Under the pieces are notes generated by a model that ran no database searches, was not told where the DNA came from, and saw nothing but the letters and a program-made list of their open reading frames with translations. Positions 7,571 through 53,469 of a stretch of DNA of 64,000 nt are shown in pieces (positions within the stretch are counted from its first letter, which is position 1; each line of letters starts with the position of its first letter). The position numbers were made by a program, and so were the translations under genes. The stretch is from a virus (lineage: Duplodnaviria; Heunggongvirae; Uroviricota; Caudoviricetes): IMG/VR virus record IMGVR_UViG_3300028361_000018; one strand, written 5' to 3'.

Positions 7571-8626
7571 ATGACAATTGATAAAAACGTTTTTAACACA
7601 GAAAAAACAGACTACGAAAAGCCTAAGCTGTTGCTTGGAGAACAGGAATCTGGTTTGTTTGATATCTTAAATACAATCCCAAATAATGCACATTATCTTA
7701 ATAGGTATATTAGATTTATCTATTATTGTGTTAATTACAACAAATATAATGTTAAGTATGAATTGCATCATATATGCCCAAAATCAAAAAATATGTTTCC
7801 TGAATATACCAATTTAAAAATAAACCCTTGGAATGGTGCAGAATTGAGTCTTAGGCAGCATTTTATAGCCCACCATATATTATGGAAAACGTATGGTGGG
7901 GATATGACAATAGCCTTCAAAGGGATGAACAATTTTGGGAGATATGAAAATAGATTAAATTCCAAATCATACCAATCTCTCGTTGTGCAGGGCAGGCGAA
8001 CACAATCTAAAAAGATGAAAATTTATTATGAGAATAATCCGTGGAGAATAGAGGAAATTAGAATTTCTCGAACAGCAGAGAATAACCCACTATTCGGGAA
8101 ACCTATATCAGAAGCTCACAAACAAAAGCTATTGGATGGTGGAAATTTATGGAGAGCAAATCCAGAGAATGTTATAAAATTTAAAATAGAAGCTAGAAAG
8201 CGTTGTAGTATACCAACCAATTGTCCTTTTTATGGAAAAAAGCATTCTGATGAAACTAGAAAACTTCAAAGCGAAAATCATTCAGGAGTTAATAATCCGT
8301 TTTACGGAAAAAGCCATTCAGAGGAAACAAAAAATCTAATAAGTGAAAAGGCCAAAGGTGAAGGGAATGGGATGTTTGGAAAGATGGGGGCTGAAAATCC
8401 GAATTATGGACAGAAGCGATCTAAAGAGTACAAAGATAACATAACAGGAAGCAAAAATCCTAGAGCAAAGTCAGTCGAAATAAATAACACACTATATGGT
8501 TGTATAAAAGATGCTGCTAAAAGGTTAAATTTATGCTATTCTTCGCTTTCCCAAAATTTAAAATACAATGACACAAGAAGACTAGAAAAAATGGGAATAT
8601 ATCAGTTTAAATTATTTACTAACTAA
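7571..8626 (+). CDS. HNH homing endonuclease with NUMOD-like repeats (MobE-like, inserted between nrdA and nrdB)
   Basis: YELHHICPKSKN...N...L...HF.AHH HNH core, then repeated NPLFGK.ISE.HK / NPFYGK.HSEETK motifs. Intergenic position matches T4 mobE. Confidence 0.7.
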   Translation: MTIDKNVFNTEKTDYEKPKLLLGEQESGLFDILNTIPNNAHYLNRYIRFIYYCVNYNKYNVKYELHHICPKSKNMFPEYTNLKINPWNGAELSLRQHFIAHHILWKTYGGDMTIAFKGMNNFGRYENRLNSKSYQSLVVQGRRTQSKKMKIYYENNPWRIEEIRISRTAENNPLFGKPISEAHKQKLLDGGNLWRANPENVIKFKIEARKRCSIPTNCPFYGKKHSDETRKLQSENHSGVNNPFYGKSHSEETKNLISEKAKGEGNGMFGKMGAENPNYGQKRSKEYKDNITGSKNPRAKSVEINNTLYGCIKDAAKRLNLCYSSLSQNLKYNDTRRLEKMGIYQFKLFTN

Positions 8627-8638
8627 GGAAAAGAAAGC

Positions 8639-9748
8639 ATGAAAGATACTATAAAAGATACTATATTTAACACGAAAAAGACGGATTACAATAATGTTTC
8701 CCTTCTAATGGGGGATCAACCAAATGGATTGTTTGATACTGTTAATAAAAAATTTCCTGAAATATGGGAGTTGTACAAAGTTTGTAAATCTCTTGACTGG
8801 GATGAAAATGAGTTCGACTACAGTTCATGCAACGTAGAATTTAAAACATGCTCAAAATCAACTTATGAGATGATGATTAAGACTCTGGCATGGCAATGGG
8901 AAGCGGATAGTGTAGCGTGTCGTTCAATCGCTCCTGTTATGGCTCCATTTATTACATCATCCGAATTATGGGCTGCAATCCAAAGAATTAGCGACCAAGA
9001 AGTTTTGCACTCTGCAACCTATTCTGAAATTGTTCGCAGCAGCTTTGATGATCCATCAGAGATCATAGCCGAAGTGTTGAAAGTAGAAGAGGCTATGGCT
9101 CGCATGACTTCTGTTTCCAGAGTGTTTAGTGAAGCGTACAAAGCTTCACACATGTATGCTCTGGGTATGATTGAGAACAATCAAGATACCTATAACAAGG
9201 CTTTCATGGTGTTTGTGGCACTGTTATGTCTTGAGCGCATTCAGTTTGCATCTAGTTTTGCTGTGACGTTTGCTATTTGCGACACTGGCATGTTTGGGCC
9301 TATTGGGAAAGCTGTTCAAAAGATTGCACAGGACGAACTAGAAGTTCATGCTGAATTTGACAAGCGTGTTATCACAGCAGAACTAAAAACCGAGCGTGGA
9401 CAAATTGCCATGGAGCAATGCGCTGATCAGATCAAAGATTTGGTTGATGAGGTTGTGAATGGTGAACTGGACTGGACTGAGTATTTGTTCTCAGAAGGGC
9501 GAGAACTGGTAGGATTGAATAAATCACTTCTATCTCAATGGGCACTTTTTTGTTCAAAGCCAGTGTACAGGTTCTTGAAAGTTAAAAGCGAGCATACACT
9601 GCCAAAGTCAAATCCGTTAAAGTTTATGGAAAATTGGCTTGACATTTCTAAAACGCAGGCATCTCCACAAGAGCAGGACAATGGTCAGTATAAAGTGAGC
9701 ATCATGCGTAGAGATGACGAAAACGAAGACTTCGACATTGGATTCTAA
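8639..9748 (+). CDS. nrdB: ribonucleoside-diphosphate reductase beta subunit
   Basis: 369 aa, ferritin-like R2 pattern (E..H iron ligands, FSEG-like region, acidic C-terminal tail). Adjacent to nrdA. Confidence 0.85.
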   Translation: MKDTIKDTIFNTKKTDYNNVSLLMGDQPNGLFDTVNKKFPEIWELYKVCKSLDWDENEFDYSSCNVEFKTCSKSTYEMMIKTLAWQWEADSVACRSIAPVMAPFITSSELWAAIQRISDQEVLHSATYSEIVRSSFDDPSEIIAEVLKVEEAMARMTSVSRVFSEAYKASHMYALGMIENNQDTYNKAFMVFVALLCLERIQFASSFAVTFAICDTGMFGPIGKAVQKIAQDELEVHAEFDKRVITAELKTERGQIAMEQCADQIKDLVDEVVNGELDWTEYLFSEGRELVGLNKSLLSQWALFCSKPVYRFLKVKSEHTLPKSNPLKFMENWLDISKTQASPQEQDNGQYKVSIMRRDDENEDFDIGF

Positions 9749-9788: not shown

Positions 9789-11207
9789 ATGAGATATCAA
9801 GAGTTTAAGCTAAACGAAGGCTACAAAGAAGTACAACAGAAGTTCAGTCAAGAGGCAGATCCTACTGAAGTGGCGAGTGCCTTTGATGTGTTTAAAAAAC
9901 TAGTCAGTGCTAATCGCATCTCAGGCAATGAACGCAATATTGATTGGTGGGGTAAACAGGGGTGGCCTGCATTTATTGAATATGTGACCGCCATTGACGA
10001 AAGACCTAGCGAAGCAGAACAAAAATCTCGCACTAAAAAAGGCAATAGCTACGTACTAGAAGAAACTGCCGAGTGGCTGATTGTGGTGCCTCTGGACAAA
10101 GACGCCAGTTGCTTTCACGGCAAGAGAAGCGATTGGTGCACAACTAAGCCAACACAAGCATATTTTGAACAATACTTTCGTGACGATGGTATTACACTAA
10201 TCTACTTCTTCCGTCAGTCAGATGGAGCAATGTGGTCCATGGCTGTTTATCCAGAAGGCGATGTAGATTATTTTGATCAGCAAAATGAACAGCTTGATGA
10301 TGAGGAGTTCCTCGAGCAAACAAGACTAAGCTACAACAAATACATTAGAATGGTCGGCGGTGAAACTGATGTTGGACAAAAAGCCACTGCTAGTCGAGAC
10401 AGCATGAATGCTGATTTGAAGACTCTACAAGACTACATTGAAAAATTAGAACAAATGGCTACCCCTAGACGAAGCGCAAAGGTAGAAACATTGCTGCTAA
10501 AAATTAAACACCAGAAGTTATTAGGAGAGTATTTTGAGTTATTACACGACGCTACCGGTCCAGTAGAAGTAGACCAACAATTACAAACGCTAGTTGCTAC
10601 CACCGCACGCTCTGCTATTAACTTTTTAAAGGGAGTTACTTCAAAGACAATTCGGATACTTCAAAAGCAAGAAACCAACGTTCGGAAGAAGATCCTAAAT
10701 ATACAATACCCCTCTAAAGAAGCGGTATCATATATCGCAACTGTAGGAGAGCTAGCAGCGTCGTATGCAATTAACGTAATAGAAGGTCCTTGGCCGCCTG
10801 GCGAAGCTGCTATTGCCCAAGATACCACTTCATCAATTCGTTATGCAAAGGATGCTATGCAAGGTCTGTGGCCGCCGGGCGAAGCTGCTATTCTTACAGA
10901 CTCAGAAACAGCTCTAGAATATGCTCGCGACATAATAAAAGACCGATGGCCCGAGGCCGAAGAGGTTATAGCTAAAGACTACCGTAGCGCATATAGATAT
11001 GCCAATGAAGTGCTAGAAGGCCCATTTCCTGCCGGAGAAGCTGCTATTGCTAGTAATGGATATTATGCATACAGATATGCAATTGATGTACTAAAAAAGA
11101 GATGGCCTGAGGGCGAAGAGGCTATGAAAAATTTCTGGGACGATACGCTGTGGAAACAGTACGTGAAGTTCGTTAATGGTGAAGATGTAGAACCTTATAA
11201 AATATAG
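9789..11207 (+). CDS. paralogous repeat-family protein 1 (conserved N-domain + 5 x 26-aa WPxGEAAIA repeats)
   Basis: 472 aa. N-terminus MRYQEFKLNEGYKEVQQKFSQEADPTEVASAFDVFKKL...DKDASCFHGKRSDWCTTKPT is near-identical to the ORFs at 23529, 25292, 27067 and 28404. C-terminal WPPGEAAIA..Y.YA..V..G repeats. Confidence 0.65.
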   Translation: MRYQEFKLNEGYKEVQQKFSQEADPTEVASAFDVFKKLVSANRISGNERNIDWWGKQGWPAFIEYVTAIDERPSEAEQKSRTKKGNSYVLEETAEWLIVVPLDKDASCFHGKRSDWCTTKPTQAYFEQYFRDDGITLIYFFRQSDGAMWSMAVYPEGDVDYFDQQNEQLDDEEFLEQTRLSYNKYIRMVGGETDVGQKATASRDSMNADLKTLQDYIEKLEQMATPRRSAKVETLLLKIKHQKLLGEYFELLHDATGPVEVDQQLQTLVATTARSAINFLKGVTSKTIRILQKQETNVRKKILNIQYPSKEAVSYIATVGELAASYAINVIEGPWPPGEAAIAQDTTSSIRYAKDAMQGLWPPGEAAILTDSETALEYARDIIKDRWPEAEEVIAKDYRSAYRYANEVLEGPFPAGEAAIASNGYYAYRYAIDVLKKRWPEGEEAMKNFWDDTLWKQYVKFVNGEDVEPYKI

Positions 11208-23528: not shown

Positions 23529-25265
23529 ATGAGATATACCGAGTTTAAGTTAAACGAGGGCTTTAAAGAAGTACAACAAAAATTTAGCCAAGAGGCAGAT
23601 CCTACAGAAGTAGCATCTGCCTTCGACGTGTTCAAAAAGCTAGTAAATGCAAATCGTATATCTGGTCAAGAACGCAATATTGATTGGTGGGGCAAACAGG
23701 GGTGGTCTGCATTTGCTGAGTACGTGACAGCCATAGACGAGAGGCCCAGTTCTTCAGAACAAGACAAGCGCACAAAGAAAGGCGAAAGTCACGTATTAGA
23801 AGATTCTAGTCAGTGGTTGATTGTAGTGCCACTAGACAAAGATGCCAGTTGTTTCCATGGTAAGAAAAGCGATTGGTGTACAACCAAACCCACTCGATCA
23901 CATTTCGAACAATACTTTCGTGACAGTAGTATTACGCTAATTTATTTCTTCCGTCAGTTAGATGGAGCCATGTGGGCCATGGCTGTTAGCCCAAATAAAA
24001 GATCAGAATACTTTGATCAACAAGATGAATCGTTGTCGTCTGCTCAATTTAATAAGCAAACAGGCCTAAACAGCAACAAGTACATCGAAATGGTTGGTGG
24101 CAAGACAGAAGTTGGTCAAAAAGCCACTGCTAGTCGAGACGTGATGAAAGCTGACTTGAAGACTCTTCAAGGTTACATTGGAAAGCTGAGACGGATGGGG
24201 AGCCCGCGACGAAGTGCAAAAATTGAAACACTGATGCTGGTTGTTAAAGATCCGACGTCAATAGAAGAATATTTCTATATACTGCATGAAGTCGACGGGC
24301 CGGTAGAAGTAGATCAGCAAGTACAAACTTTAGTTGCTAACTCTGCTGAAGATGCTATCAAATATCTACAAAATGTTAGTGTAAAGACAGTTAAAGTACT
24401 AGAAAGAAACCTACCTCCTAATCAATCAATGAGCAATATGCTACACCCTACTGAACAAGCACTTGCTTATATAGCTAGTAAAGGAGCATTGGCTGCTGCG
24501 TATGCACGTCGAATAATAAAAGGTCCGTGGCCCGAAGCCGAAGCTGCTATTGCGGAAGACGGCCTAGGAGCAGCAATTTATGCACTGGATGTCATTAACA
24601 AAGACAAAGAACAACCAGTTAGGTGGCCACCAGGTGAGGCAGCTATTGCACAAAGCCCTAGAGGATCATTAATATACGCACGTGATGTACTTAACAAGCC
24701 ATGGCCGCCAGGTGAAGCTGCTATTGCAAAAGATGCCGAAACATCTCTAGAATATGCTCGCGAGATAATTAAAGGCAAGTGGCCAGCAGGTGAGGAGACT
24801 ATTGCACAAGACCCTTCTACATCCAGTAGGTATGCTATTGAAGTGCTTAATCAAGGAAAAAATAAAAAAGAAAGATGGCTTCCTGGTGAAGATGCTATTG
24901 CTACTGAATCATTTGCGGCTTATCAGTACGCAAGAATGGTAATAAGAGGACGTTGGAAACCCGGTGAAGATGCTATTGCGCTGGATGGGTACAACGCTGC
25001 AATGTATGCTACTGAAATATTAGAACGTGAGTGGCCAGCAGCCGAATCTGTTATTTCTCAGGACGCTTACGGTGCATTAGTATACGCTCGCGGAATAATC
25101 GAAGGAGAATGGCCCGAAGGAGAAGCTGCTATGGCAACTTTATCTGATGCAGCATACGAGTATGCCATAGACGTACTAGAAGATCAATTCCTAGAAGGTG
25201 AAGATGCAATACGTGCCGACACGTTCTTATGGCCGAAGTATAAACGACGGTTTGGCATCGGTTAA
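23529..25265 (+). CDS. paralogous repeat-family protein 2 (N-domain + ~10 x 26-aa repeats)
   Basis: 578 aa. Same N-domain as the 9789 ORF. C-terminal half is tandem WP(P/E)GEAAIA..D...AY.YAR..I.G units. Ends ...YKRRFGIG like the 27067 ORF. Confidence 0.65.
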   Translation: MRYTEFKLNEGFKEVQQKFSQEADPTEVASAFDVFKKLVNANRISGQERNIDWWGKQGWSAFAEYVTAIDERPSSSEQDKRTKKGESHVLEDSSQWLIVVPLDKDASCFHGKKSDWCTTKPTRSHFEQYFRDSSITLIYFFRQLDGAMWAMAVSPNKRSEYFDQQDESLSSAQFNKQTGLNSNKYIEMVGGKTEVGQKATASRDVMKADLKTLQGYIGKLRRMGSPRRSAKIETLMLVVKDPTSIEEYFYILHEVDGPVEVDQQVQTLVANSAEDAIKYLQNVSVKTVKVLERNLPPNQSMSNMLHPTEQALAYIASKGALAAAYARRIIKGPWPEAEAAIAEDGLGAAIYALDVINKDKEQPVRWPPGEAAIAQSPRGSLIYARDVLNKPWPPGEAAIAKDAETSLEYAREIIKGKWPAGEETIAQDPSTSSRYAIEVLNQGKNKKERWLPGEDAIATESFAAYQYARMVIRGRWKPGEDAIALDGYNAAMYATEILEREWPAAESVISQDAYGALVYARGIIEGEWPEGEAAMATLSDAAYEYAIDVLEDQFLEGEDAIRADTFLWPKYKRRFGIG

Positions 25266-25291
25266 TAGGAATACAAAAATAAAGGACCATT

Positions 25292-27055
25292 ATGAGATAT
25301 CAAGAGTTTAAGCTAAACGAGGGATACAAGGAAGTACAACAGAAGTTCAGTCAAGAAGCAGATCCTACTGAAGTAGCAAGTGCTTTTGACGTGTTCAAAA
25401 AACTAGTAAGTGCTAATCGCATCAAAGGCAACGAACGCAATATTGATTGGTGGGGCAAACAGGGGTGGCCTGCGTTTATTGAATACGTGACCGCCATTGA
25501 TGAACGACCTAGCGAGGCCGAACAAAAAGCTCGAAAAGGCAAAGGTGAAAGTCATGTACTAGAAGAAACTGCCGAGTGGTTTATTGTCGTCCCACTGGAC
25601 AAGGACGCCAGTTGCTTTCACGGTAAAAAAAGCGATTGGTGCACAACTAAGCCAACACAAGGCCATTTCGAATCTTACTTTCGCGACTATGACGTTACAC
25701 TGATCTACTTCTTTCGTCAGTCAGATGGAGCCATGTGGGCTATGGCAGTTTATCCCAATAAAAAAGCAGAGTATTTTGATCAGCAGGATGATTCGCTTGA
25801 TGATGAAGAATTCGAGAAGCAAACAGGTCTGGATCCCAACAAATACACCGAGCTAGTTGGCGGTAAAACTGATGTTGGACAAAAGGCCACTATTAATCGA
25901 GACATCATGAAGACCGACTTTAACACCTTAACAGGTTACATTAAAAAATTAGAACAAATGAGTAACCCACGCCGAAGTGCAAAGATTGAAACCTTACTGT
26001 TGAAAGTTAAAGACTCTAGACTAATAAAAGATTATTTAAGGACACTATATAATTATAGCGGACCAGTGGAGGTAGATCAACAACTACAAAGTCTAGTTGC
26101 TGGCGGTGATGGGGCGGTTGGTATTAGATTTTTGAACAATGTTAGTGTAAAGACAGTTAAAATACTAGGAAGGCAAGAAGATCTCAGGCATATGATGAAA
26201 AACTTGCGGCACCCTTCTAAAGAAGCGATGGAATACATTACCGACACAGGTAGACTAGCAGTCGCATACGCAAGATATGTGATCGAGGGTCAGTGGCCTC
26301 TAGGCGAAGCTGCTATTGCCGCAGATGCACAATCAGCGTTCAGCTATGCTAGAGAAGTAATCAACGACGGTGGTGGGCCTTGGGACGAGAAAGTTAGGTG
26401 GCCGCCCGGCGAAGCTGCTATTGCCACAAATGCAGAAGCAGCCTATATGTATGCTGACCAGATAATTAAAGGCCCCTGGCCCCCGGGAGAAGCTGCTATT
26501 GTTACCGATACACAATCAGCCTATAGATATGCCAGCGCAGTAATCAACAGAAGTACCTTTGGCAACGATCGTGTTAGGTGGCCGCCTGGTGAAGCTGCTA
26601 TTGCACAAGACGCATATACTTCTATTGACTACGCAAGAAATGTCGTAAGAGGCAGATGGCCACAAGGTGAGGCTGCTATTGCCTCAGATGCAGATACGGC
26701 CTATAAGTATGCTCGCGAGATAATTAAAGGAAGGTTTCCAGAAGGAGAAGCTGCTATTGCCCAAGATGCCGAAACAGCTTATAAATATGCTGACCTGATA
26801 ATTAAAGGAAGGTTTCCAGAAGGTGAAGCTGCTATTCTTACAGACGCATATACTTCTATTGACTACGCAAGAAATGTCATAAGAGGCAGATGGCCACAAG
26901 GTGAGGCTGTTATTGCCGCAGAGGCTGCAACTGCGTATGCCTATGCAAAGGATGTGATAAAAGGCAAATGGCCTCCAGGTGAAGCTGCTATTGATAAAGA
27001 TTATGATTTTAGAAGGGCGTATTCAAGCTTTTTAAATCCGATTCGTAACAATTAA
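25292..27055 (+). CDS. paralogous repeat-family protein 3 (N-domain + ~10 x 26-aa repeats)
   Basis: 587 aa. Repeats are nearly perfect, e.g. RWPQGEAAIASDADTAYKYAREIIKG / RFPEGEAAIAQDAETAYKYADLIIKG. 78-bp periodicity is visible in the DNA (gaagctgctattgc recurs). Confidence 0.65.
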   Translation: MRYQEFKLNEGYKEVQQKFSQEADPTEVASAFDVFKKLVSANRIKGNERNIDWWGKQGWPAFIEYVTAIDERPSEAEQKARKGKGESHVLEETAEWFIVVPLDKDASCFHGKKSDWCTTKPTQGHFESYFRDYDVTLIYFFRQSDGAMWAMAVYPNKKAEYFDQQDDSLDDEEFEKQTGLDPNKYTELVGGKTDVGQKATINRDIMKTDFNTLTGYIKKLEQMSNPRRSAKIETLLLKVKDSRLIKDYLRTLYNYSGPVEVDQQLQSLVAGGDGAVGIRFLNNVSVKTVKILGRQEDLRHMMKNLRHPSKEAMEYITDTGRLAVAYARYVIEGQWPLGEAAIAADAQSAFSYAREVINDGGGPWDEKVRWPPGEAAIATNAEAAYMYADQIIKGPWPPGEAAIVTDTQSAYRYASAVINRSTFGNDRVRWPPGEAAIAQDAYTSIDYARNVVRGRWPQGEAAIASDADTAYKYAREIIKGRFPEGEAAIAQDAETAYKYADLIIKGRFPEGEAAILTDAYTSIDYARNVIRGRWPQGEAVIAAEAATAYAYAKDVIKGKWPPGEAAIDKDYDFRRAYSSFLNPIRNN

Positions 27056-27066
27056 CAGGATCTATT

Positions 27067-28377
27067 ATGAGATATAACGAATTTAAACTAAACGAGGGCT
27101 TCAAGGAAGTACAACTGAAGTTTAGTCAGGAAGCAGATCCTACTGAGGTAGCGTCTGCTTTCGACGTGTTCAAAAAGTTGGTCAGTGACAATCGCATCTC
27201 AGGCCAAGAACGAAATATTGATTGGTGGGGCAAACAGGGGTGGTCCGCATTTAGTGAGTACGTGACTGCAATTGATGAAAGACCTAGTTCTTCTGAACAA
27301 AAGATGCGAAAAAACAAAGGCACGAGTCACGTAATAGAGGAATCTGCTGACTGGTTCATTGTAGTGCCACTAGACAAAGACGCCAGTTGTTTCTACGGCA
27401 AAAAAAGTAGCTGGTGTACCACCAAGCCAACGCAAGCACACTTCGAATCGTACTTCCGTGGCAAAGCTATTACACTGATCTATTTCTTCCGTCAGTCAGA
27501 TGGCGCCATGTGGGCTATGGCTGTTGCTCCAAATAAAGGAGCAGAATACTTTAATCAAAAAGACCAATCGCTTGATGTAATTGAATTCAACAAGCAGACA
27601 GGTCTAGACAGCAACAAGTACATTGAGATGGTAGGCGGTAAAACAGAGATAGGTAAAAAAACTGCTGCTAGTCGTAAAGAAATGCGAGCTAGTTTAAAAA
27701 ATCTAAAGGACTTTCTTAAAAAATTAGAACAAATGGATGCTCCGCAACGAAGTGCAAAAATAGAAACAATGATGTTACAGGTTAAGGATCCAAGATTAAT
27801 AGAAGAATATTTTAAAATATTACACAAGCAAAGTGGGCCAGTGGAAATAGATCAACAACTGCAAACTCTTGTTGCTAATATTTCTACTGATGCTGTTAGA
27901 TATTTACAAGACGTTAGTATAAAGACAGTTAAAATAATGGAAAGAAATGCTACGCCTGGTGAAGTAATAAATAATGTCCGAAATCCTACTAAACAAGTAC
28001 TTGCTTATATAGCTAGTAGAGGAGCATTGGCTGTTGCTTATGCTGCTATAGTAATAAAGGGTAGATGGCCTCTGGGCGAAGTTGTAATTGCACAAGATGG
28101 TTATTATGCAGCGTTATACGCCCGAGATATATTAAAACGCGAGTGGCCCGAAGCCGAATCTGCTATTGCCAACAATAGCTCCGGTTCATTTATGTATGCA
28201 CATGCAGTACTCAACAAAGCATGGCCTCCTGGAGAAGCTGCAATTGCCACGCACACTAATTACTCTTTTCGATATGCTACAGAAGTACTAGAAGATCGAT
28301 TTTTAAAAGGAGAGAATGCAATACGTAAAGCACAATCGGCGTGGAATGCATACAAAAAACGGTTTGGCATCGGTTAA
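27067..28377 (+). CDS. paralogous repeat-family protein 4 (N-domain + ~5 repeats)
   Basis: 436 aa. Same N-domain. C-terminus ...AYKKRFGIG. Confidence 0.65.
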   Translation: MRYNEFKLNEGFKEVQLKFSQEADPTEVASAFDVFKKLVSDNRISGQERNIDWWGKQGWSAFSEYVTAIDERPSSSEQKMRKNKGTSHVIEESADWFIVVPLDKDASCFYGKKSSWCTTKPTQAHFESYFRGKAITLIYFFRQSDGAMWAMAVAPNKGAEYFNQKDQSLDVIEFNKQTGLDSNKYIEMVGGKTEIGKKTAASRKEMRASLKNLKDFLKKLEQMDAPQRSAKIETMMLQVKDPRLIEEYFKILHKQSGPVEIDQQLQTLVANISTDAVRYLQDVSIKTVKIMERNATPGEVINNVRNPTKQVLAYIASRGALAVAYAAIVIKGRWPLGEVVIAQDGYYAALYARDILKREWPEAESAIANNSSGSFMYAHAVLNKAWPPGEAAIATHTNYSFRYATEVLEDRFLKGENAIRKAQSAWNAYKKRFGIG

Positions 28378-28403
28378 TAGGCATACAAAAATAAAGGACC
28401 AGT

Positions 28404-29594
28404 ATGAGATATAACGAGTTTAAATTAACCGAAGGTTACAAGGAAGTACAACAGAAGTTTAGCCAGGAGGCGGATCCTACAGAGGTAGCAAGTGCTTTTG
28501 ATATCTTCAAAAAATTAGTAAGTGCCAATCGCATCTCAGGTCAAGAAAGAAATATTGATTGGTGGGGCAAACAGGGATGGTCTGCATTTACTGAATACGT
28601 AACAGCCATTGACGAACGCCCTAGCTCTTCAGAACAAAAAGCTCGCACTAAAAAAGGAAATAGCTACGTATTAGAAGAAACTGACGAGTGGCTAATTGTA
28701 GTACCATTGGACAAGGACGCCAGTTGCTTTCACGGCAAGAACAGTGATTGGTGCACAACCAAACCCACTCAAAACCATTTTGAACAATACTTTCGTGACT
28801 TCAGCGTTACATTAATCTATTTCTTTCGTCAGTCAGATGGTGCTATGTGGGCCATGACAGTTAGTACAAAGAAAGGGCCAGAGTATTTTGACCAGCAAGA
28901 TACATCATTATCTATGGAAGAATTCAATCAACAAACAGGACTAGACAGCAACAAGTACGCCGAACTAGTCGGAGGAGAAACTGAGGTTGGCCAACAAGCC
29001 ACTGCTAGTCGAGACGTAATGAAAGCCGACTTAGAGAATCTAAAAAGTCTTATTGAAAAATTAGTACAAATGGATGCTCCGCGGCGCAGTGCAAAAATTG
29101 AAACAATGCTGTTGAGGGTTAAGGACGCAAAGTCAATAAAAAGATATTTAATAATACTATATCAAGCCAACGGTCTAGTCGAATTAGATCAACAACTACA
29201 AACTCTAGTTGCTACAAATGTAACGGGATCTATTAAATATTTGAAAGGTGTCACTGCAAAGACAATTAAACAACTAGAACAAAATAATGAAGACGAAGAT
29301 GAAGATGAAGATGGACCCAACTACGAAATATTCGGGGATTTACAAGACCTTACCAAAGAAGCGCTTGCTTATATAGCTAGCAAAAGCTATTTGTCCCTTG
29401 CGTATGCACTTCACGTAGTCGACGGTACGTGGCCACCGGGCGAGGCAGCTATTGCAAAAGATCCAGACATATCTTTAGAATACGCACAGAATGTAATTGG
29501 CGGAAGATTCCCTGCAGGTGAAGCTGCTATGACTAGTGACGAAAATATTAAGCGGTTGTATAAACTTACAATACTTAATCATGAAACAAGTTAA
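28404..29594 (+). CDS. paralogous repeat-family protein 5 (N-domain + 2-3 repeats, EDEDEDED linker)
   Basis: 396 aa. Same N-domain (DKDASCFHGKNSDWCTTKPT). Fewer repeats. Confidence 0.65.
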   Translation: MRYNEFKLTEGYKEVQQKFSQEADPTEVASAFDIFKKLVSANRISGQERNIDWWGKQGWSAFTEYVTAIDERPSSSEQKARTKKGNSYVLEETDEWLIVVPLDKDASCFHGKNSDWCTTKPTQNHFEQYFRDFSVTLIYFFRQSDGAMWAMTVSTKKGPEYFDQQDTSLSMEEFNQQTGLDSNKYAELVGGETEVGQQATASRDVMKADLENLKSLIEKLVQMDAPRRSAKIETMLLRVKDAKSIKRYLIILYQANGLVELDQQLQTLVATNVTGSIKYLKGVTAKTIKQLEQNNEDEDEDEDGPNYEIFGDLQDLTKEALAYIASKSYLSLAYALHVVDGTWPPGEAAIAKDPDISLEYAQNVIGGRFPAGEAAMTSDENIKRLYKLTILNHETS

Positions 29595-32885: not shown

Positions 32886-33172
32886 ACAAGCACCAGGGTT
32901 TTACACTAATCGAGTTAATGATTGTTGTTGCTATTATTCTTATCTTAGCAGCAATTGCTATTCCGGCTTATCAAGAGCATAACAACCCCACGACATCAGA
33001 ACAAAAGTACACACAATGTATCAACGGTGTTAAGTTTACAACAGCTAACACTCCTACACAAATTATCGGTGAAGACGGGCGCGGAATTAGTTGCAATAGT
33101 AACTCAGCTACTAGTAACCCAGCGCCCAGTGACACCTATAACAACACCTTCGAAAACACCTGGAATAATTAA
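32882..33172 (+). CDS. type IV pilin-like (prepilin N-terminus) protein
   Basis: 96 aa. [33 protein letters not shown] is a textbook class-III signal peptide / N-methylation motif (G|[13 protein letters not shown]). Confidence 0.7.
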
Positions 33173-33178
33173 TACAAG

Positions 33179-33207
33179 TTGACAGGGTTGACAATCTGTC
33201 ATACACT
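33179..33207 (+). promoter_or_regulatory. sigma70-like promoter with tandem TTGACA boxes (TTGACAGGGTTGACA ... TACACT)
   Basis: TTGACA at 33179 and 33188. TACACT 33202-33207. TGACAGGGTTGACAATCTGTCA forms a hairpin. Confidence 0.45.
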
Positions 33208-33842: not shown

Positions 33843-34001
33843 ATGGATACTGAAGGACTAGGCAAAGGCATTAGCAACATTGCTATCTGGGGAGCAGTGG
33901 CAGCAGTAGCATACTTCACCCAAGGTACCGGATGGGTCGTTGGCTTTGCATTCTTTGCAGCTTGCTGTACCTACGAAATGTACAACAAAGAAGGCAAATA
34001 G
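33843..34001 (+). CDS. small hydrophobic protein (52 aa)
   Basis: ATG 33843..TAG 34001, below the track cutoff. Gly/Ala-rich TM-like sequence. Sits directly downstream of the promoter. Confidence 0.3.
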   Translation: MDTEGLGKGISNIAIWGAVAAVAYFTQGTGWVVGFAFFAACCTYEMYNKEGK

Positions 34002-34002
34002 T

Positions 34003-34887
34003 ATGACAATCACAGTGACATCATATACTAACGGCAAACACAACGTTCCATACGAATCGTTTACGTTTAGTGGCGGTGAAGAGCACATTCGATTTAGTGG
34101 TCCTAGGCGACACGCAGCGTGGGATGTGCATATTACTGCTATCCTTACCAGCTCAGCTGAGATTATCAAATTGGCTATGGTCACTGACGCAATCCGTAGA
34201 CACGCAGACAATGTAAAGATCACACTAAAAATGCCTTACATTCCCTACGCTCGTCAAGACCGTGTATGCGTCGAAGGAGAAGCGCTCGGCATTCGTGTGT
34301 TCTGTGATATAATCAACGCTATGCAATTCGATCGCGTACACGTACTAATGCCTCACAGTGAAGTTGCTCCAGCATTGCTTAACAACTGTGACGAAAACCT
34401 GTATACTTCAAACTGGAATCTTTTTATTCCAGACTCTATTCCAAGAGATTTGAAAAATGATCTCATTATTGTATCGCCAGATGCAGGCGCAATGAAACGA
34501 ACGCTTGGGTTTGCCCAAATGCTTAATACTACAAAACACCATCGCCTGCCGCAAGTGGACGTTGTAATGGCAGATAAGGTGCGTGATGTGGTCACAGGAC
34601 AGATCACTAGCACAGCAGTACACGCAGGTCCAGAGCTTGTAGGCAAAGTTTGCCTCATTTACGATGACATCTGCGACGGTGGATTTACGTTTATTAAGCT
34701 GGCAGAAGCACTACGCGAAAAGGGTGCTAGTAAAGTAATCCTAGCTGTGCCGCACGGTATCTTCAGCAAAGGATTTACTGAAATTGCTAAAGTTATTGAT
34801 CAAGTGATTACAACCAATATTTTTAAAGATAACATTCCAGAACACACCAGCATTCCTGTTAGTGTGTTCGACATTACAAGGGCGTAA
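34003..34887 (+). CDS. prs: ribose-phosphate pyrophosphokinase (PRPP synthetase)-like
   Basis: Track ORF 33940-34887. Likely start ATG 34003. MPYIPYARQDR..., IVSPDAGAMKR, CLIYDDICDGGFT parallel the Prs motifs (YARQDR; DxGG PRPP-binding loop). Confidence 0.65.
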   Translation: MTITVTSYTNGKHNVPYESFTFSGGEEHIRFSGPRRHAAWDVHITAILTSSAEIIKLAMVTDAIRRHADNVKITLKMPYIPYARQDRVCVEGEALGIRVFCDIINAMQFDRVHVLMPHSEVAPALLNNCDENLYTSNWNLFIPDSIPRDLKNDLIIVSPDAGAMKRTLGFAQMLNTTKHHRLPQVDVVMADKVRDVVTGQITSTAVHAGPELVGKVCLIYDDICDGGFTFIKLAEALREKGASKVILAVPHGIFSKGFTEIAKVIDQVITTNIFKDNIPEHTSIPVSVFDITRA

Positions 34888-34888: not shown

Positions 34889-35419
34889 ATGAAATACGTA
34901 GACGGCAATTTGTTAGACATAGCAGAGCAAGGCAAATTCGATATTATTGTACACGGTTGTAGCTGCCAGAATAGAATGGAAAGTGGTATTGCTAAACAAA
35001 TTCGTGATCGCTACCCGAAAGCATATATGGCAGATCAGCTAACACAGAAAGGCGACAGCGACAAACTAGGGTGCTTCACGCAAGCAAACATTGACGGTAC
35101 CTCTATGTTTCCACCCGAAAAGGGAAGTCGTGGCTTATATCAATACCGATACTCGTTTACGCTACTCAATGCATACACACAGGATCACTACGGCTACGAC
35201 CACTCAATATATGTTAACTACGAAGCTGTATCACAAGTGTTTAAGCAGATTAAACTGTTGTACGATATGAATCCAATGGCTCCTGTGCGAATTGGCATTC
35301 CAATGATAGGAAGCGGAGCAGCAAACGGAGACTGGACCACAATAGAAAGCATTATTGCTAGTATGAACTTTAGTGATCTTACAGTAGTATGTTTTAACGG
35401 AGACAGCGATGATACCTGA
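34889..35419 (+). CDS. macro-domain protein (TARG1/Poa1p-like ADP-ribose processing enzyme)
   Basis: Track ORF 34862-35419. ATG at 34889. IIVHGCSCQNRMESGIAKQIRDRYP and IGIPMIGSGAANGDW parallel TARG1 (AHCISEDCRMGAGIA ... PRIGCGLDRL). Confidence 0.5.
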   Translation: MKYVDGNLLDIAEQGKFDIIVHGCSCQNRMESGIAKQIRDRYPKAYMADQLTQKGDSDKLGCFTQANIDGTSMFPPEKGSRGLYQYRYSFTLLNAYTQDHYGYDHSIYVNYEAVSQVFKQIKLLYDMNPMAPVRIGIPMIGSGAANGDWTTIESIIASMNFSDLTVVCFNGDSDDT

Positions 35420-35759
35420 GAGTTTAAGAGACTATAAATCAAATCGAACACTAATCGACGAGATGGACTCTGCTGAAACTGAGATTGATAAGCTTCGTTT
35501 AAAGATCAAAGTAAATCAGGGCAAGCTAAAGTACAAGTGTCCTGAATGTAAAAAGTTCTCAACACTGCGCGATACTGATGCTATACAAAAAAATTACTAC
35601 GTAGAACCACACGGATGCACTGGAGGAGACTATTGGGATCGAGACGGAATTATGTGGAATTGTCCTAAATGCAATCAGAAGCAGAGTCTAAAATACGAAG
35701 AACTCACTAGCTGGCAGTCAATGTCACATCACTTTAAATCAATTACAGACGAAAAATAA
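35409..35759 (+). CDS. zinc-ribbon protein (116 aa)
   Basis: CPECKK ... CPKCNQ cysteine pairs. Confidence 0.4.
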   Translation: MIPESLRDYKSNRTLIDEMDSAETEIDKLRLKIKVNQGKLKYKCPECKKFSTLRDTDAIQKNYYVEPHGCTGGDYWDRDGIMWNCPKCNQKQSLKYEELTSWQSMSHHFKSITDEK

Positions 35760-35772
35760 CTAGGAGAAACAT

Positions 35773-36624
35773 ATGAGATTAGACGCCCTTTCAGCAATCG
35801 ACTTTTACAAAGCAGATCACAGACGCCAGTACCCAGAAGGTACTGAGCTAGTCTACAGCAACTTTACACCACGCAGTATGCGCCTGTACAAAGGCAACGC
35901 TACTGAGACTGTAGTGTTCGGACTACAGGGATTCTGCAAATGGTTCCTCATTGATATGTGGAACGAAACTTTCTTCAACAAGCCAAAGGCAGAAGTTGTA
36001 GCCAAGTATCAAAGAAGACTTGACTCTAGCTTAGGTGACGGCGCTGTGCCAATGGATCACGTCGAAGCATTACACGACTTGGGCTATTTGCCTTTAGAGA
36101 TTAAAGGTCTGCCAGAAGGCGTAAGTGTGCCGGAAAAAGTAGCTGTTCTTACAGTCAAGAATACAGTACCAGAGTTTTACTGGCTGGTTAACTACATTGA
36201 AAGCGTGATGAGCTCAGAGCTGTGGAAGCCAAGCGTAGTTGCTACGCTCGCAAAAGAGTATCGCGAAATACTTACAAAGTATGCTAATCTAACTGGCGCA
36301 TCACTCGATGGCGTTCCTATTCAGTGTCACGACTTTAGCTTCCGGGGAATGAGTGGACTACACGATTCCGCAAGCTCAGGGGCCGGGCACTTGCTGTCCT
36401 TTGTGGGCACAGACGGTGTTCCATCAATTGACTATTTAGAAGAGTACTACAACGCAGATCCAGCTAAAGAAATGATTGGGTGTAGCATTCCTGCAACCGA
36501 ACATTCGGTCATGAGCTGTAACGTAGGAAACTTATCTAAGTTAATCGGCGAGCAGCTGGAAGAAAATCCCAACCTAAGTCTCGAAGACGCGCACCGACGT
36601 GTTCTTCAGATAGCCAAGGGTTAG
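35773..36624 (+). CDS. nadV: nicotinamide phosphoribosyltransferase (NAMPT/NadV), N-terminal fragment
   Basis: 283 aa. DFYKADHRRQYP, SFRGMS, GHLLSFVGTDGV...IPATEHSVMS align with the N-terminal ~330 residues of NAMPT (FKGTDTV...VPAAEHST). The ORF then runs into unrelated sequence and overlaps the antisense HNH gene. Confidence 0.75.
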   Translation: MRLDALSAIDFYKADHRRQYPEGTELVYSNFTPRSMRLYKGNATETVVFGLQGFCKWFLIDMWNETFFNKPKAEVVAKYQRRLDSSLGDGAVPMDHVEALHDLGYLPLEIKGLPEGVSVPEKVAVLTVKNTVPEFYWLVNYIESVMSSELWKPSVVATLAKEYREILTKYANLTGASLDGVPIQCHDFSFRGMSGLHDSASSGAGHLLSFVGTDGVPSIDYLEEYYNADPAKEMIGCSIPATEHSVMSCNVGNLSKLIGEQLEENPNLSLEDAHRRVLQIAKG

Positions 36625-37261
36625 TTAACATTTGCTTAGTAACAATCCTGTCAGGATTTGAGCAAAAGTTGCGCACTGTTCCGGCGGTATAAGGAGTGCT
36701 TCGGGCTGCTTGCGGAGCAGACCCGAAAGTTCCTTTAGGGGTTACATAGTGCCCCTTAAAGTTAGCATTCCTTTCAGGATGCGCAAGTTTTGTATTTCTT
36801 ATCTTGTCGACAACGTCAGGTGTTCTTGGTATGTTATATAAGTGAGATTCTTTACCACCTTTATGAGGGTTGTTAGTTTTAATAAGTTGTCTAATAATAT
36901 TAATGTGCTCAGGCGATAGTGTTTTTCCAGAATGTAAGTTAGAATTAGCAATAGCAAATTGCTCTTTAGCAGTCTGAAATGTTCGAGAAGTAATTTTGTA
37001 GTATCGTTGAACATCACCGTTAAGTTGATTGTTCATTGCCCAGAAAGCAAATTTTAGTTTATCAGATTCTGGATATATCTTACAAAGCATCCTGTGACAT
37101 ATAAAATGTACACGAGCAGACAAGTATACTAAATTAGTAGAACAGTTGGTTCCGCCGATCGACTTAGGAACAATATGGTGCCTTTCAGAATAAACGTCTT
37201 TTGGCTTGACACGTTGCCCAAACTGTGCTATTATAGCGTTATAAGTTTTTATGTAATTCAT
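36536..37261 (-). CDS. HNH homing endonuclease inserted in the NAMPT gene (antisense orientation)
   Basis: 241 aa, - strand. ERHHIVPKSIGGTNCSTNLVYLSARVHFICH is an HNH core shared with the 7571 and 49150 ORFs. Lies exactly in the gap between the two NAMPT fragments. Confidence 0.7.
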   Translation of the reverse strand: MNYIKTYNAIIAQFGQRVKPKDVYSERHHIVPKSIGGTNCSTNLVYLSARVHFICHRMLCKIYPESDKLKFAFWAMNNQLNGDVQRYYKITSRTFQTAKEQFAIANSNLHSGKTLSPEHINIIRQLIKTNNPHKGGKESHLYNIPRTPDVVDKIRNTKLAHPERNANFKGHYVTPKGTFGSAPQAARSTPYTAGTVRNFCSNPDRIVTKQMLTNPWLSEEHVGARLRDLGWDFLPAARRLT

Positions 37262-37306
37262 TATTTTACACTCCGTTATGTGTATTTATACAAAAAAGGA
37301 AATTTT

Positions 37307-38116
37307 ATGTCGTATACCGAAAAAGAAATCATGAACTACTGCGAGCAGGAACTGTTTCGGCACTTGGTCGAAGACCTGTATCCAACAGGGCTTGTATCTA
37401 TTGTTAGTGACACGTGGGACTTTTGGACTGTGGTTACTGAGTATATTCCTGCGCTCAAAGACGTTATTATGGCTCGCCAACCAAACGCCATTGGCCTTAA
37501 CAAGGTAGTGTTGCGTCCAGACAGCGGAGACCCTGTAAAGATCATCACAGGCTACACTGAAGACGAATATTACATCGAAGAAGACGGTGAGCTCATTAGC
37601 TACAAGGACGGTATCACACTGTCTCCTGCAGAAGTCAAAGGCGCTATCGAATGCCTGTGGGACACTTTTGGTGGTACGCTAACCGACTGTGGTTATAGAG
37701 AATTAGACGAGCATATTGGCTTAATCTATGGCGATAGCATTACGCTAGAACGCGCACACGCAATTCTACGCAGACTGGCAGACAAAGGCTTTGCTAGCAG
37801 CAACGTTGTTCTTGGAGTGGGGTCATACACTTACCAGCACAACACACGCGACAGCATGGGGTTTGCAATGAAGGCAACCTATGGTGAGGTCAACGGAGTA
37901 GGACGTGAAATCTTTAAAGACCCAGCAACAGACAGCGGCACAAAGAAGAGTGCTAAAGGTTTGTTACGTGTTGATCTAGTAGACGGAGAATACGTAATGC
38001 AAGACCAAGTAACGTGGGCTGAAGAAGCAGGCGGTGAGCTAAAGACTGTGTTTAAGGACAGCAAGCTCTACAACCAAACCAGCTTGGGTGAGATCAGGCA
38101 GCGTATACAGGGTTAA
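37307..38116 (+). CDS. nadV: nicotinamide phosphoribosyltransferase (NAMPT/NadV), C-terminal fragment
   Basis: Track ORF 37175-38116. ATG 37307 with AAGGA RBS. TEKEIMNYCEQ...VSIVSDTWD...LRPDSGDP...KGLLRV align with NAMPT residues ~330-490 (HEKDAFEH...VSVVSDSYD...IRPDSGNP...KGRL). Confidence 0.75.
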   Translation: MSYTEKEIMNYCEQELFRHLVEDLYPTGLVSIVSDTWDFWTVVTEYIPALKDVIMARQPNAIGLNKVVLRPDSGDPVKIITGYTEDEYYIEEDGELISYKDGITLSPAEVKGAIECLWDTFGGTLTDCGYRELDEHIGLIYGDSITLERAHAILRRLADKGFASSNVVLGVGSYTYQHNTRDSMGFAMKATYGEVNGVGREIFKDPATDSGTKKSAKGLLRVDLVDGEYVMQDQVTWAEEAGGELKTVFKDSKLYNQTSLGEIRQRIQG

Positions 38117-38126
38117 TCTTAGAGGT

Positions 38127-38155
38127 TGACAATCAGCGTGTTGTAGTATATACTT
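38127..38155 (+). promoter_or_regulatory. sigma70-like promoter whose -10 lies in the loop of a terminator hairpin
   Basis: TTGACA 38127-38132, TATACT ~38149-38154, nested within the 38135-38184 hairpin. Confidence 0.45.
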
Positions 38156-38184
38156 AGAGTATAATACACAACACGCTTTTTTTT
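38135..38184 (+). terminator. intrinsic terminator (10-bp stem + T8)
   Basis: AGCGTGTTGT ... ACAACACGCT perfect inverted repeat followed by TTTTTTTT (38177-38184). Confidence 0.6.
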
Positions 38185-38195
38185 AGGAGAATAAA

Positions 38196-38528
38196 ATGAT
38201 CACAGCAGGCGATGTTTACAATCGGATGATTAAGGCAGGTGAAGTAGACAATACTGCGCTAGACGGATTTCTAGAGCAAATTATTATTCCTCGATTTGAG
38301 AAAGCGCAAAAAAATAAGATTAAACTAACAACTGCGGTGTTTATCATTAACCCACTGTTTGCTGGCAAAGTTCCTGCCGAGATTGTCGATTTGTTTAATA
38401 GTCGCGGGTTTAGAATGGAATTCGAATGCGAGGACAGGCCTTGCGGAAACTCTTACTACGAACTAGAGATTCCGCCCCAAGGCGAAGATAGTTGCGGATT
38501 CGGCAAGGAGCATGACTGGAACAAATAA
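38196..38528 (+). CDS. hypothetical protein (110 aa)
   Basis: ORF track. Confidence 0.4.
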   Translation: MITAGDVYNRMIKAGEVDNTALDGFLEQIIIPRFEKAQKNKIKLTTAVFIINPLFAGKVPAEIVDLFNSRGFRMEFECEDRPCGNSYYELEIPPQGEDSCGFGKEHDWNK

Positions 38529-38998
38529 TGAAATACTATGCCGGAATCGGCTCTCGGGTAACTCCTGATAATATACAGACCGACATGACCAACATTGCTA
38601 GTATATTAGCAGACAACGGGTATATATTGCGCAGTGGAGGAGCACTTGGCGCAGATCGTGCGTTTGAAAACGGAGCCAAAAACCGAGCAGAAATATTTCT
38701 TCCTCGGGCAGATTCGCCTGCATGGACACTAGTGTTTACTCAACATTTTCATCCTAATCCTAGTGCGTTGTCAGATAAGGCGTGGATGTTGATGAACCGC
38801 AATGCAATGCAGATACTAGGACGAGACGGTGACACTCCCGTTGACTTTATAATTTGCTGGACTAGAGACGGAAAAGCAAGTGGTGGGACAGGGCAAGCTC
38901 TGCGCATTGCTGCTGATTTTGGAATTACTGTATATAATATGTTTAACAACGACCATGTTAGTGAACTTGCTAACAAACTAACAAATATTAAGGAATAA
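38528..38998 (+). CDS. hypothetical protein (156 aa)
   Basis: ORF track. Confidence 0.4.
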   Translation: MKYYAGIGSRVTPDNIQTDMTNIASILADNGYILRSGGALGADRAFENGAKNRAEIFLPRADSPAWTLVFTQHFHPNPSALSDKAWMLMNRNAMQILGRDGDTPVDFIICWTRDGKASGGTGQALRIAADFGITVYNMFNNDHVSELANKLTNIKE

Positions 38999-39001: not shown

Positions 39002-39481
39002 ATGAACGTTAAATTTGTAAGTCGAGGAGATGCCAAAAAGTACATCAGCAAAAATCACTTCGCTGACGCCGATTGCGACTTAGTTAGTATTTCAGATACC
39101 CATAAAGAAGCTGAACAGATGAAGGAGTTGTGGCTAGCTAATAAAAAACACGCGAACGCCGCTGTGTTTCTTCGGTTTGCAGATATGGACGACAGTAGCA
39201 GCGGATTTGATTCTAAAAAAGCCGAAACTATCTGCAACTTCTTAGAGCAATCCTTTAGGAAGAAAAAAGACGTGATAGTACATTGCTTTGCTGGAATTTC
39301 ACGAAGTGGTGCTGTTGCTAAGTTTGCTAACGAGTATTACGGACTAAATGACGTATACTTAGACACTTACGCAGGACATAACTTGTGGGTGTTCTACACT
39401 TTGTTAGAGCAAGCAGGAGTACCCACCCAACGACAATATTACGGTGATCTAGAGAAGCGCCTCGGAAAAGAAAACAGTTGA
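39002..39481 (+). CDS. dual-specificity / protein-tyrosine phosphatase-like
   Basis: 159 aa with VIVHCFAGISRSGAV = HCx5R(S/T) P-loop of Cys-based phosphatases. Confidence 0.7.
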   Translation: MNVKFVSRGDAKKYISKNHFADADCDLVSISDTHKEAEQMKELWLANKKHANAAVFLRFADMDDSSSGFDSKKAETICNFLEQSFRKKKDVIVHCFAGISRSGAVAKFANEYYGLNDVYLDTYAGHNLWVFYTLLEQAGVPTQRQYYGDLEKRLGKENS

Positions 39482-52611: not shown

Positions 52612-53469
52612 TTAATCGTATAGAACTTTATAGTCGGTAACAAAATAGAAATCAGTAACATAATCAAATACAAATTTTAGATCCTTTTTATACAGTATAT
52701 CAATAGGTTCCGACACTGACTGTAATTTTAAGTCAACAACATGGGTGTAATAACCTTTGATCTCAACAAGACGCCCGTTGACACGAAAATCTGGATAATA
52801 CTTTCTGTGCTTACCGTTGTAATAATATTTCCAAGATTCTTTATTACGTTCAATGCAGATTTGGTGATCAACACAAAAAATATAGTAACACAGTTCGTAT
52901 GTAGATGCTAAATAAAAACCTTTATAATATCCACCTTTACTATTTCCGGATCCTTTACGTTCGCCACCAGAATACGGTATAAAGCAGCTAAATGAACAGT
53001 ATTTTTTACTTTCTTCACAAGGATAGGCATAAAATTTATTTTGGCAAGTTTCAGAAGAGCAAGTTTTATACGTTCCTTTACGTTGAAAAGTCGGCCTATT
53101 AGTAACAAATCCGGAAGGATTATTTTTAGCATACAACGAAAGTTTCTTCTTGGTGCTCTCCTTTACTTTCCGTTTAGTATTTGTAAATGTCGTTGAACAA
53201 GATTTTGAACAAAAAGTGCTGTGCCGTTTTTCAAATGGAAGAGCTAGGGTGCACGACTTACAAAACTTATCAGCTGTTTCCTTAAACTGATTAATTGTGT
53301 TTTGTTTTAGTTTACTTGAAATTTGTGGAGCCACAAATTTCATTCGCTGCTGATGTGCAACTCTTTGAGCAGCATCATGAGAAAGTCGATGATGTCCAGC
53401 TATGCCTTTGGCGGATAACTGTTTGCCGCATATGATACAAGAACATATAGGTGATTTATAAATATGCAA
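52612..53469 (-). CDS. Cys-rich putative endonuclease (PD-(D/E)XK-like core; possible homing endonuclease)
   Basis: 285 aa, the only convincing minus-strand gene in the tRNA island. N-terminal CxxC...HH zinc-finger-like segments. C-terminal YYPDFRVNGRLVEIKG resembles a PD...E.K nuclease motif. Confidence 0.45.
   Translation of the reverse strand: MHIYKSPICSCIICGKQLSAKGIAGHHRLSHDAAQRVAHQQRMKFVAPQISSKLKQNTINQFKETADKFCKSCTLALPFEKRHSTFCSKSCSTTFTNTKRKVKESTKKKLSLYAKNNPSGFVTNRPTFQRKGTYKTCSSETCQNKFYAYPCEESKKYCSFSCFIPYSGGERKGSGNSKGGYYKGFYLASTYELCYYIFCVDHQICIERNKESWKYYYNGKHRKYYPDFRVNGRLVEIKGYYTHVVDLKLQSVSEPIDILYKKDLKFVFDYVTDFYFVTDYKVLYD

Follow-up and report, generated by a model that had tools for sequence, protein, structure and literature searches.

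The 64,000-nt stretch of viral DNA analysed here (IMG/VR virus record IMGVR_UViG_3300028361_000018 of the Caudoviricetes; "the window" below) carries at positions 35773-38116 a gene of the nicotinamide phosphoribosyltransferase (Nampt) family that is split in two by a homing endonuclease gene on the opposite strand. A six-frame list of open reading frames (ORFs) places three of them at this locus, one on the plus strand at 35773-36624 (283 amino acids), one on the minus strand at 36536-37261 (241 amino acids), and another on the plus strand at 37307-38116 (269 amino acids from the ATG at 37307). An earlier note on this DNA had taken them for the N-terminal part of the enzyme up to the sequence IPATEHS, for an HNH endonuclease gene that lies between the halves and overlaps the tail of the first one, and for the remainder of the enzyme with its own ATG and ribosome-binding site (RBS). 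All three assignments were borne out by the comparisons described below, and the locus can be laid out as follows.

35773-36513, plus strand: core of the N-terminal fragment (N-fragment), comprising NAMPT_N and the first part of the catalytic barrel; its sequence closes with ...IPATEHSVM, in which the catalytic His lies.
36536-37261, minus strand: free-standing HNH homing endonuclease gene, MobE/I-LimIII-like, 241 amino acids (PHROG 655, E=1.7e-41).
37307-38116, plus strand: C-terminal fragment (C-fragment), 269 amino acids, with the remaining catalytic barrel, the motif RPDSGDP and the clamp helix GVGSYTYQHNTRD.

In Pfam, the first ORF matches NAMPT_N and positions 1-58 of NAPRTase while ORF 37307-38116 matches NAPRTase positions 72-222 (E=1e-26), and the domain pair of the Nampt family (PF18127 and PF04095) is present across the two fragments together with the catalytic His motif. 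On PHROG 448 (nicotinamide phosphoribosyl transferase) the first ORF occupies positions 15-261 and the downstream ORF positions 263-494, and in the structure 9W5X of the Protein Data Bank (PDB) residues 11-252 are covered by the N-fragment and residues 255-487 by the C-fragment. Given these mappings to Pfam, PHROG, and 9W5X, the two ORFs are collinear and together form the complete halves of one Nampt-family enzyme, which removes the doubt whether the second ORF has any homology to the C-terminus of this family. The catalytic motifs are kept on both sides, PATEHS in the N-fragment and RPDSGDP in the C-fragment, and the break is found a few codons past the catalytic-His motif PATEHSVM, just after the strand that bears the catalytic His, in a segment where 48 intact homologues differ in length. 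An identical N-fragment is encoded on six contigs, and the whole arrangement of 2344 nt recurs at 100% identity in two other independent assemblies and at 99.2% in a third. This recurrence excludes a sequencing or assembly artefact, including the sequencing error hiding a continuous frame that the first reading had allowed for.

Searching a protein collection with the N-fragment returned an identical protein, an 81%-identical protein of 284 amino acids, and an 89%-identical protein from an uninterrupted gene. This last gene lies on contig L064, which lacks the insertion and shares synteny with the window across ~13 kb at ~87-95% DNA identity; the gene encodes a continuous enzyme of 511 amino acids that reads ...IPATEHSVMCMGGQTGEMELFRHLV..., and the uninterrupted site at the junction reads ...CCTGCAACCGAGCACAGCGTAATGTGCATGGGCGGACAAACCGGTGAGATGGAACTG.... 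By blastn, window positions 35300-36503 align to L064 5423-6626 and positions 37348-38600 to L064 6663-7924, which delimits the insertion.

36504-37347: inserted cassette of 844 nt in place of 36 nt (L064 6627-6662) of the uninterrupted allele, as seen by blastn and at the codon level.

The 36 replaced nucleotides are 12 codons of the variable-length segment after the catalytic-His motif. Because L064 carries the uninterrupted syntenic allele, the boundaries of the insertion are precise, and the alignment to an intact homologue that had been proposed for fixing the breakpoint gives an exact answer. Collinearity of the N-fragment with L064 extends to 36503 in the blastn alignment and, when codons are compared, to the Met codon at 36511-36513; the protein of the fragment matches the intact one through ...EHSVM and then continues into a tail of 35 amino acids (SCNVGNLSKLIGEQLEENPNLSLEDAHRRVLQIAKG) and a stop codon. 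The first ~12-14 residues of the C-fragment (MSYTEKEIMNYCEQ) are new, and from ELFRHLV onwards it follows the intact protein again, with 95% DNA identity to L064 from 37348 on. The same conserved site is thus polymorphic for the presence of the cassette, which is found in the window and missing from the intact gene of its close relative. Flanking direct or inverted repeats are absent, so we rejected an element of the transposon type with terminal repeats, and a repeat search on the region returned just short two-copy matches. A target-site duplication, with MSYTEKEIM in the head of the C-fragment as a degenerate copy of ATEHSVM, was likewise rejected since the match is lost in the homologous cassette of contig L065 and in other cassettes.

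Two further differences from L064 adjoin the cassette. The 660 nt directly upstream of it (35854-36513) are 89.4% identical to L064, compared with 95.7% further upstream and 95.4% downstream, and the Ser codon next to the junction is TCG in the window and AGC in L064, different at all three positions. The lowered identity, with its gradient of divergence towards the junction, could reflect a one-sided co-conversion tract, for which it is only suggestive. Elsewhere in the syntenic region L064 has ~1.3 kb of extra sequence (L064 1999-3305 against window ~33101-33186) that includes a Peptidase_S8 gene of 407 amino acids absent from the window.

The cassette contains the tail of the N-fragment with its stop codon, the endonuclease gene, a candidate sigma70-like promoter, and the RBS, ATG, and short head of the C-fragment. 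Its parts other than the endonuclease gene are these.

36514-36624, plus strand: cassette-encoded tail of the N-fragment (SCNVGNLSKLIGEQLEENPNLSLEDAHRRVLQIAKG) and stop codon, absent from intact L064 and kept in L065.
36536-36624: convergent overlap of 89 nt in which the tail of the N-fragment lies opposite the C-terminus of the endonuclease; the plus-strand reading LEENPNL faces LGWDFL in the minus-strand reading.
37206-37234, plus strand: candidate sigma70-like promoter TTGACA-17-TGcTATTAT within the 5' coding region of the endonuclease gene, facing the C-fragment.
37267-37296: intergenic block between the divergent start codons, 30 of 30 nt identical to L065.
37296-37345, plus strand: RBS AAGGA (37296-37300), ATG (37307), and cassette-encoded head of the C-fragment MSYTEKEIMNYCE(Q), from the codon-level comparison with L064.

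In each of the five cassettes whose upstream sequence was listed, the C-fragment is preceded by a purine tract resembling an RBS and by an ATG. The putative promoter agrees with the sigma70 consensus at 11 of 12 positions and has an extended -10 element, a consensus match only, and the site lies 73 nt upstream of the C-fragment ATG; L065 keeps both hexamers (TTGCGT-17-TGtTATAAT) despite a diverged spacer. On the minus strand, the block at 37267-37296 holds a GGAG that serves as RBS of the endonuclease gene and a motif resembling T4 late promoters, TATAAATA. The DNA of the convergent overlap is nearly identical between the window and L065, and both tail and head are kept between these two. The head motif M-x-Y-[ST]-x-x-[EQ]-I-x-[ND] is common to the window, L065, L071, and L073. 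Separately, the part of the N-fragment tail that reads LSLEDAHRRVLQIAKG (36577-36621) resembles a helix of the C-fragment, ITLERAHAILRRLADKG (37736-37786), with ~7 of 16 positions identical in a MAFFT alignment, a likeness that may be due to chance.

The endonuclease that separates the two halves matches annotated phage homing endonucleases by tblastn and, weakly, Pfam HNH_5 (E=0.0045). We found 27 full-length homologues of 44-100% identity, all metagenomic, and its HNH motif ERHHIVPK..TNL..VHFICH is kept in all homologues. Genomic context was viewed at seven loci (the window, L065, L071, L072, L073, L074, and L075), and at each of them the gene lies antisense between the N- and C-fragments of a Nampt-family enzyme; the endonucleases of the other six are 44-74% identical to that of the window. 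The N-fragments have 275-299 amino acids at all seven loci and the C-fragments 262-329 where the contig covers them (L065 stops 31 codons into its C-fragment), and throughout the endonuclease gene extends 35-89 nt into the 3' end of the N-fragment. The flanking genes vary among these phages, with a different neighbour-gene order in L074 as well, and the cassettes of the window and L065 are ~73% identical overall. Although the seven lineages are only ~50-60% identical at the protein level, each half is an ORF of full length wherever the contig includes it. The window holds a second homing endonuclease of PHROG 655 at 7571-8626 (plus strand), with three NUMOD3 motifs, between nrdA (5304-7556) and nrdB (8639-9748); it is 36% identical to the endonuclease in the split gene over the HNH region. 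In T4, the gap between nrdA and nrdB is the place of mobE.

Ratios of non-synonymous to synonymous substitution rates (dN/dS) are low on both sides of the break. The N-core gives ~0.05 between the window and L065, which are both split, and 0.076 between the window and intact L064, the C part gives 0.11 between the window and L064, and the endonuclease ~0.12 between the window and L065 and 0.12-0.30 over the comparisons. These values indicate that both halves and the endonuclease are maintained by purifying selection. They bear on the best-surviving alternative, namely that the insertion inactivated the gene and that the two ORFs are decaying remnants or that one of them alone retains some function. 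Insertion into an accessory gene could indeed be tolerated without function, and at one position of the clamp described below the window has H where its intact relative has Y. However, a decaying gene would sit uneasily with dN/dS values of 0.05-0.11, with full-length halves in every covered lineage at such low protein identity, with the retention of PATEHS, RPDSGDP, and the clamp helix, and with the dedicated translation signals that the C-fragment keeps, so that we consider inactivation unlikely.

The endonuclease and its host gene do not always diverge in step. L071 has the N-core farthest from that of the window (dN 0.62) and yet, after L065, the closest endonuclease (dN 0.39). This incongruence is consistent with horizontal movement of the cassette, but rate variation could also yield it. 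Together with the dN/dS values it gives an indirect hint that the endonuclease may cleave the cassette-free allele site-specifically and home into it.

An intron with an antisense endonuclease gene had been named in the earlier note as the alternative to a fragmented enzyme. The 844-nt insert would then be self-splicing (group I or other) and splicing would restore a single frame, in line with the position of the insert in a conserved catalytic-site region, as is typical of intron homing sites, and with the label "putative intron" that the related I-LimIII received, without experiment, in the LIMEstone1 genome paper (PMC3296691). This explanation did not hold up. Neither group I (RF00028) nor group II introns have an Rfam match at 36300-37500 of the window at E<=10, and no intron family matches the homologous cassettes of L065, L071, L072, and L073 at E<=1. 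The same scan does detect, as a positive control, the group I intron beside I-LimII in LIMEstone1 (29 bits, E=6e-4) and finds none around I-LimIII. Moreover, just 32 + 45 nt of the insert are left over by the antisense ORF, the reading frame of the N-fragment continues into a tail that brings its own stop codon, and every listed cassette gives the C-fragment an RBS and an ATG. We therefore regard an intron as very improbable. Least credible of all is a fractured gene with a split intein whose halves would be the tail and head and whose trans-splicing would ligate the fragments: phage genes fractured in this way, with split-intein halves on either side of a free-standing endonuclease gene, are known (PMC2677866), an ordinary intein lies at almost the same site in contig L020, and the tail of the window starts S-C, but tail (35 amino acids) and head (~12) sum to ~47 amino acids, much too little for a Hint domain, Pfam gives no Hint or intein match, the Cys is not conserved (SS in L065; different in L072 and L073), and a terminal His-Asn followed by Cys, Ser, or Thr is missing ahead of the C-extein.

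We thus consider it likely that the locus encodes a Nampt-family enzyme, most likely Namat, whose gene was fragmented by an endonuclease and which is expressed as two polypeptides. The earlier note had put forward such a two-subunit enzyme produced by homing-endonuclease insertion, after the example of split nrdA and gp39/gp60, and every test that we ran supports it. A MobE/I-LimIII-like HNH cassette of ~0.84 kb would have entered the phage gene a few codons past the catalytic-His motif. The 283-amino-acid N-fragment would then terminate at the stop codon within the cassette, and translation of the 269-amino-acid C-fragment would start from the RBS and ATG that the cassette supplies, with transcription probably also from a cassette-supplied promoter. 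By analogy with NrdA-a and NrdA-b of phage Aeh1, for which experiments have shown it, the two fragments may assemble non-covalently into an active enzyme. The endonuclease, intact and encoded on the opposite strand, presumably cleaves alleles that lack the insertion when phages co-infect a cell, and spreads as the break is repaired by recombination. An AlphaFold2 model of a single chain in which the two fragments are joined head to tail has a mean predicted local distance difference test score of 84, and its core superimposes on the Namat structures 9W5W and 9W5X with a target-normalised TM-score of 0.92-0.93. With low to moderate confidence, the model predicts that the tail forms two helices and that the head extends a native helix at its N-terminus.

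Several points weigh against this interpretation. It draws on DNA sequence and structural models. For most pairs compared, dS has reached saturation, and the promoters were called from consensus matches only. The motif TATAAATA is not enriched in the window, so that we can only infer a late-promoter role for it and have rejected it as a phage-wide late promoter. Conservation of the tail is partly explained by overprinting on the C-terminus of the endonuclease, because LEENPNL is the reverse reading of the LGWDF motif, and this LGW-F motif is also present in I-LimIII, whose target gene differs. Finally, the tails and heads of L074 and L075 are different and thus not conserved across all lineages, so a universal assembly module borne by the cassette is not established.

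As to the identity of the enzyme, the best match in both sequence and fold is SpbetaL1 Namat, represented by the 2025 structures 9W5X and 9W5W, which were identified as Namat in previous work (PMC12774641). The same study attributes the specificity of Namat for ADPR-PP to a clamp formed by R40 in a loop and F392 and Y396 in a helix (PMC12774641). The corresponding residues are R/Y/H in the window, and the two helix positions are Y/Y in intact L064, compared with Q/R in the bona fide NadV of H. ducreyi and A/K in Xcc Nampt at the same two positions. The window thus has the selectivity clamp of Namat, with His for Tyr as a departure. Two genes directly upstream add to this picture.

33940-34887, plus strand: Prs-family gene, candidate Adps (Pfam Pribosyltran_N, Pribosyltran, and Pribosyl_synth; PHROG 619).
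34889-35419, plus strand: candidate Poa1p-like ADP-ribose-1''-phosphate phosphatase, Adpp-like (PHROG 335 "phosphatase", E=4.6e-45).

A Prs-family gene adjoins the split gene in all related loci; no Adps structure is among the PDB matches. ORF 34889-35419 has yeast ADP-ribose 1''-phosphate phosphatase (6LFU, E=2.6e-5) as its best PDB sequence match and no match in Pfam, to a macro domain or any other family, so its link to phosphatases comes from PDB and PHROG alone. This similarity suggests the extended NARP1-AP operon, in which the order of genes is Adps-Adpp-Namat and which has been described as countering the aRES defence (bioRxiv 10.64898/2026.01.28.702374). Since the order of Prs-like gene, Poa1p-like gene, and split gene matches this operon and the clamp residues point the same way, the split gene is, as judged by sequence and context, more likely the Namat of the NARP1 anti-defence pathway than a classical NadV. 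Of the initial description as a phage NAD-salvage gene (nadV), the assignment to the Nampt family therefore stands, whereas classical NadV salvage is disfavoured.

The codons around the catalytic His have also been hit by other elements. At L066/L067, L068, and L069 an unrelated HNH_3/NUMOD4 endonuclease on the sense strand interrupts this gene at the same position, and L020 carries an intein close by.

L066 5001-7162, L068 745-2966, and L069 954-2349, sense: split loci of the sense type, with an endonuclease of ~181-192 amino acids and N-fragment tails such as SCNILNIVQALTEKGEW...
L020 1269-3971: Nampt-family ORF of 900 amino acids with an intein at PA|C...N|TEHS, seven codons upstream of the break in the window.

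With three kinds of selfish element at this site, the codons around the catalytic His appear as a target. A further contig, L019, has a continuous Nampt-family ORF (3998-5419) with an in-frame insert after EHSVM (CTNIANIQQSLDITGKW...RLAEIAYIWYLITELYPTG). This insert resembles a sense-type tail plus head; it may stem from the healing of a split gene or represent the ancestral state. A broader proposal, which we offer tentatively and hold to be somewhat less probable than its opposite, would be that the endonuclease family is a mobile element adapted to ORFs without intron or intein, its cassette bringing all that the host gene requires to function as two pieces (a tail overprinted on the C-terminal codons of the endonuclease, an internal promoter, and, for the downstream half, an RBS, a start codon, and a head that prolongs a helix), and that the catalytic-His codons of phage Namat/Nampt genes are a hot spot hit independently by at least three unrelated selfish elements.

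Fragmentation of a gene by a free-standing endonuclease with retention of function is an established class of mechanism, as exemplified by nrdA/mobE of phage Aeh1. As in the window, the nrdA-a/mobE/nrdA-b locus of Aeh1 has a free-standing HNH gene of the Mob type within an enzyme gene near active-site codons and gives two separately translated fragments with an insertion-born C-terminal tail and N-terminal head and neither RNA nor protein splicing (Crona et al. 2011, PMC3045599). The Aeh1 NrdA fragments function together, and the tails created by the mobE insertion are essential for activity (PMC3045599). The window differs in that the target is a Nampt/Namat-family gene and that the endonuclease gene is antisense, with an overlap of 89 nt with the tail of the upstream fragment.

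For the antisense layout, the unrecognised precedent is the DNA polymerase locus ORF180/I-LimIII/ORF182 of Dickeya phage LIMEstone1. I-LimIII is homologous to the endonuclease in the window (28% identical along its full length and sharing the C-terminal ...ELGW-F module) and likewise lies antisense between two fragments of its host gene with a convergent overlap. The differences are that the target there is an essential DNA polymerase, that the overlap is 14 nt, and that the element was annotated as a putative intron (PMC3296691), with no ribozyme detected there. In our copy of this genome (L076), the polymerase fragments and I-LimIII are found at 321-2809 and the group I intron beside I-LimII at 2828-3033. 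I-LimIII thus splits an essential DNA polymerase gene in a viable phage. Together, these loci suggest that splitting genes without intron or intein is routine for this endonuclease family, and the antisense MobE/I-LimIII-like elements of cultured ViI-like phages that carry an intron annotation are probably gene-splitting cassettes of the same kind.

Other known systems are less close. The Namat of NARP1 and NARP1-AP has been described as a single polypeptide (Osterman et al. 2024, bioRxiv 10.1101/2024.02.11.579819; PMC12774641; bioRxiv 10.64898/2026.01.28.702374), unlike the split enzyme of the window, and Osterman et al. 2024 (bioRxiv 10.1101/2024.02.11.579819) make no mention of a split form. 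From the fractured genes of Dassa et al. 2009 (PMC2677866), which combine split inteins with a free-standing endonuclease, the window differs in having no intein halves. We found no description of a split nadV, Nampt, or Namat in the literature searched. Among cultured phages, megablast gave no match to the split region or to window positions 1-25000, distant blastn of the region retrieved intact Nampt genes only, and tblastn with the sense-type HNH_3 endonuclease led to no cultured phage with a split gene.

Some other features of the window are recorded here for completeness. Five paralogous genes at 9789-11207 and 23529-29594 (plus strand), four of them in tandem, share an N-terminal domain of ~200 amino acids (PHROG 17056/28193) of unknown function, and the motif TATAAATA recurs at 23499, 30 nt upstream of the first tandem copy. 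The ORF at 52612-53469 is, besides the endonuclease gene, among the very few long ones on the minus strand and has no PHROG or Pfam match. A gene for a dual-specificity-phosphatase-like protein (39002-39481, plus strand) is found two genes downstream of the split gene.

For annotation, it follows from the arrangement described here that two "partial" Nampt ORFs flanking an HNH gene should not be labelled as pseudogenes. Phage NAD+ reconstitution (NARP1/NARP2) is a recently recognised form of counter-defence. The locus would provide a naturally split and apparently functional version of the key transferase of NARP1, and its break right after the catalytic His may offer a ready-made split site for studies of active-site assembly. 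With it, a non-replicative accessory gene would join the genes that survive fragmentation by endonucleases, which so far comprise those of ribonucleotide reductase, topoisomerase, and DNA polymerase.

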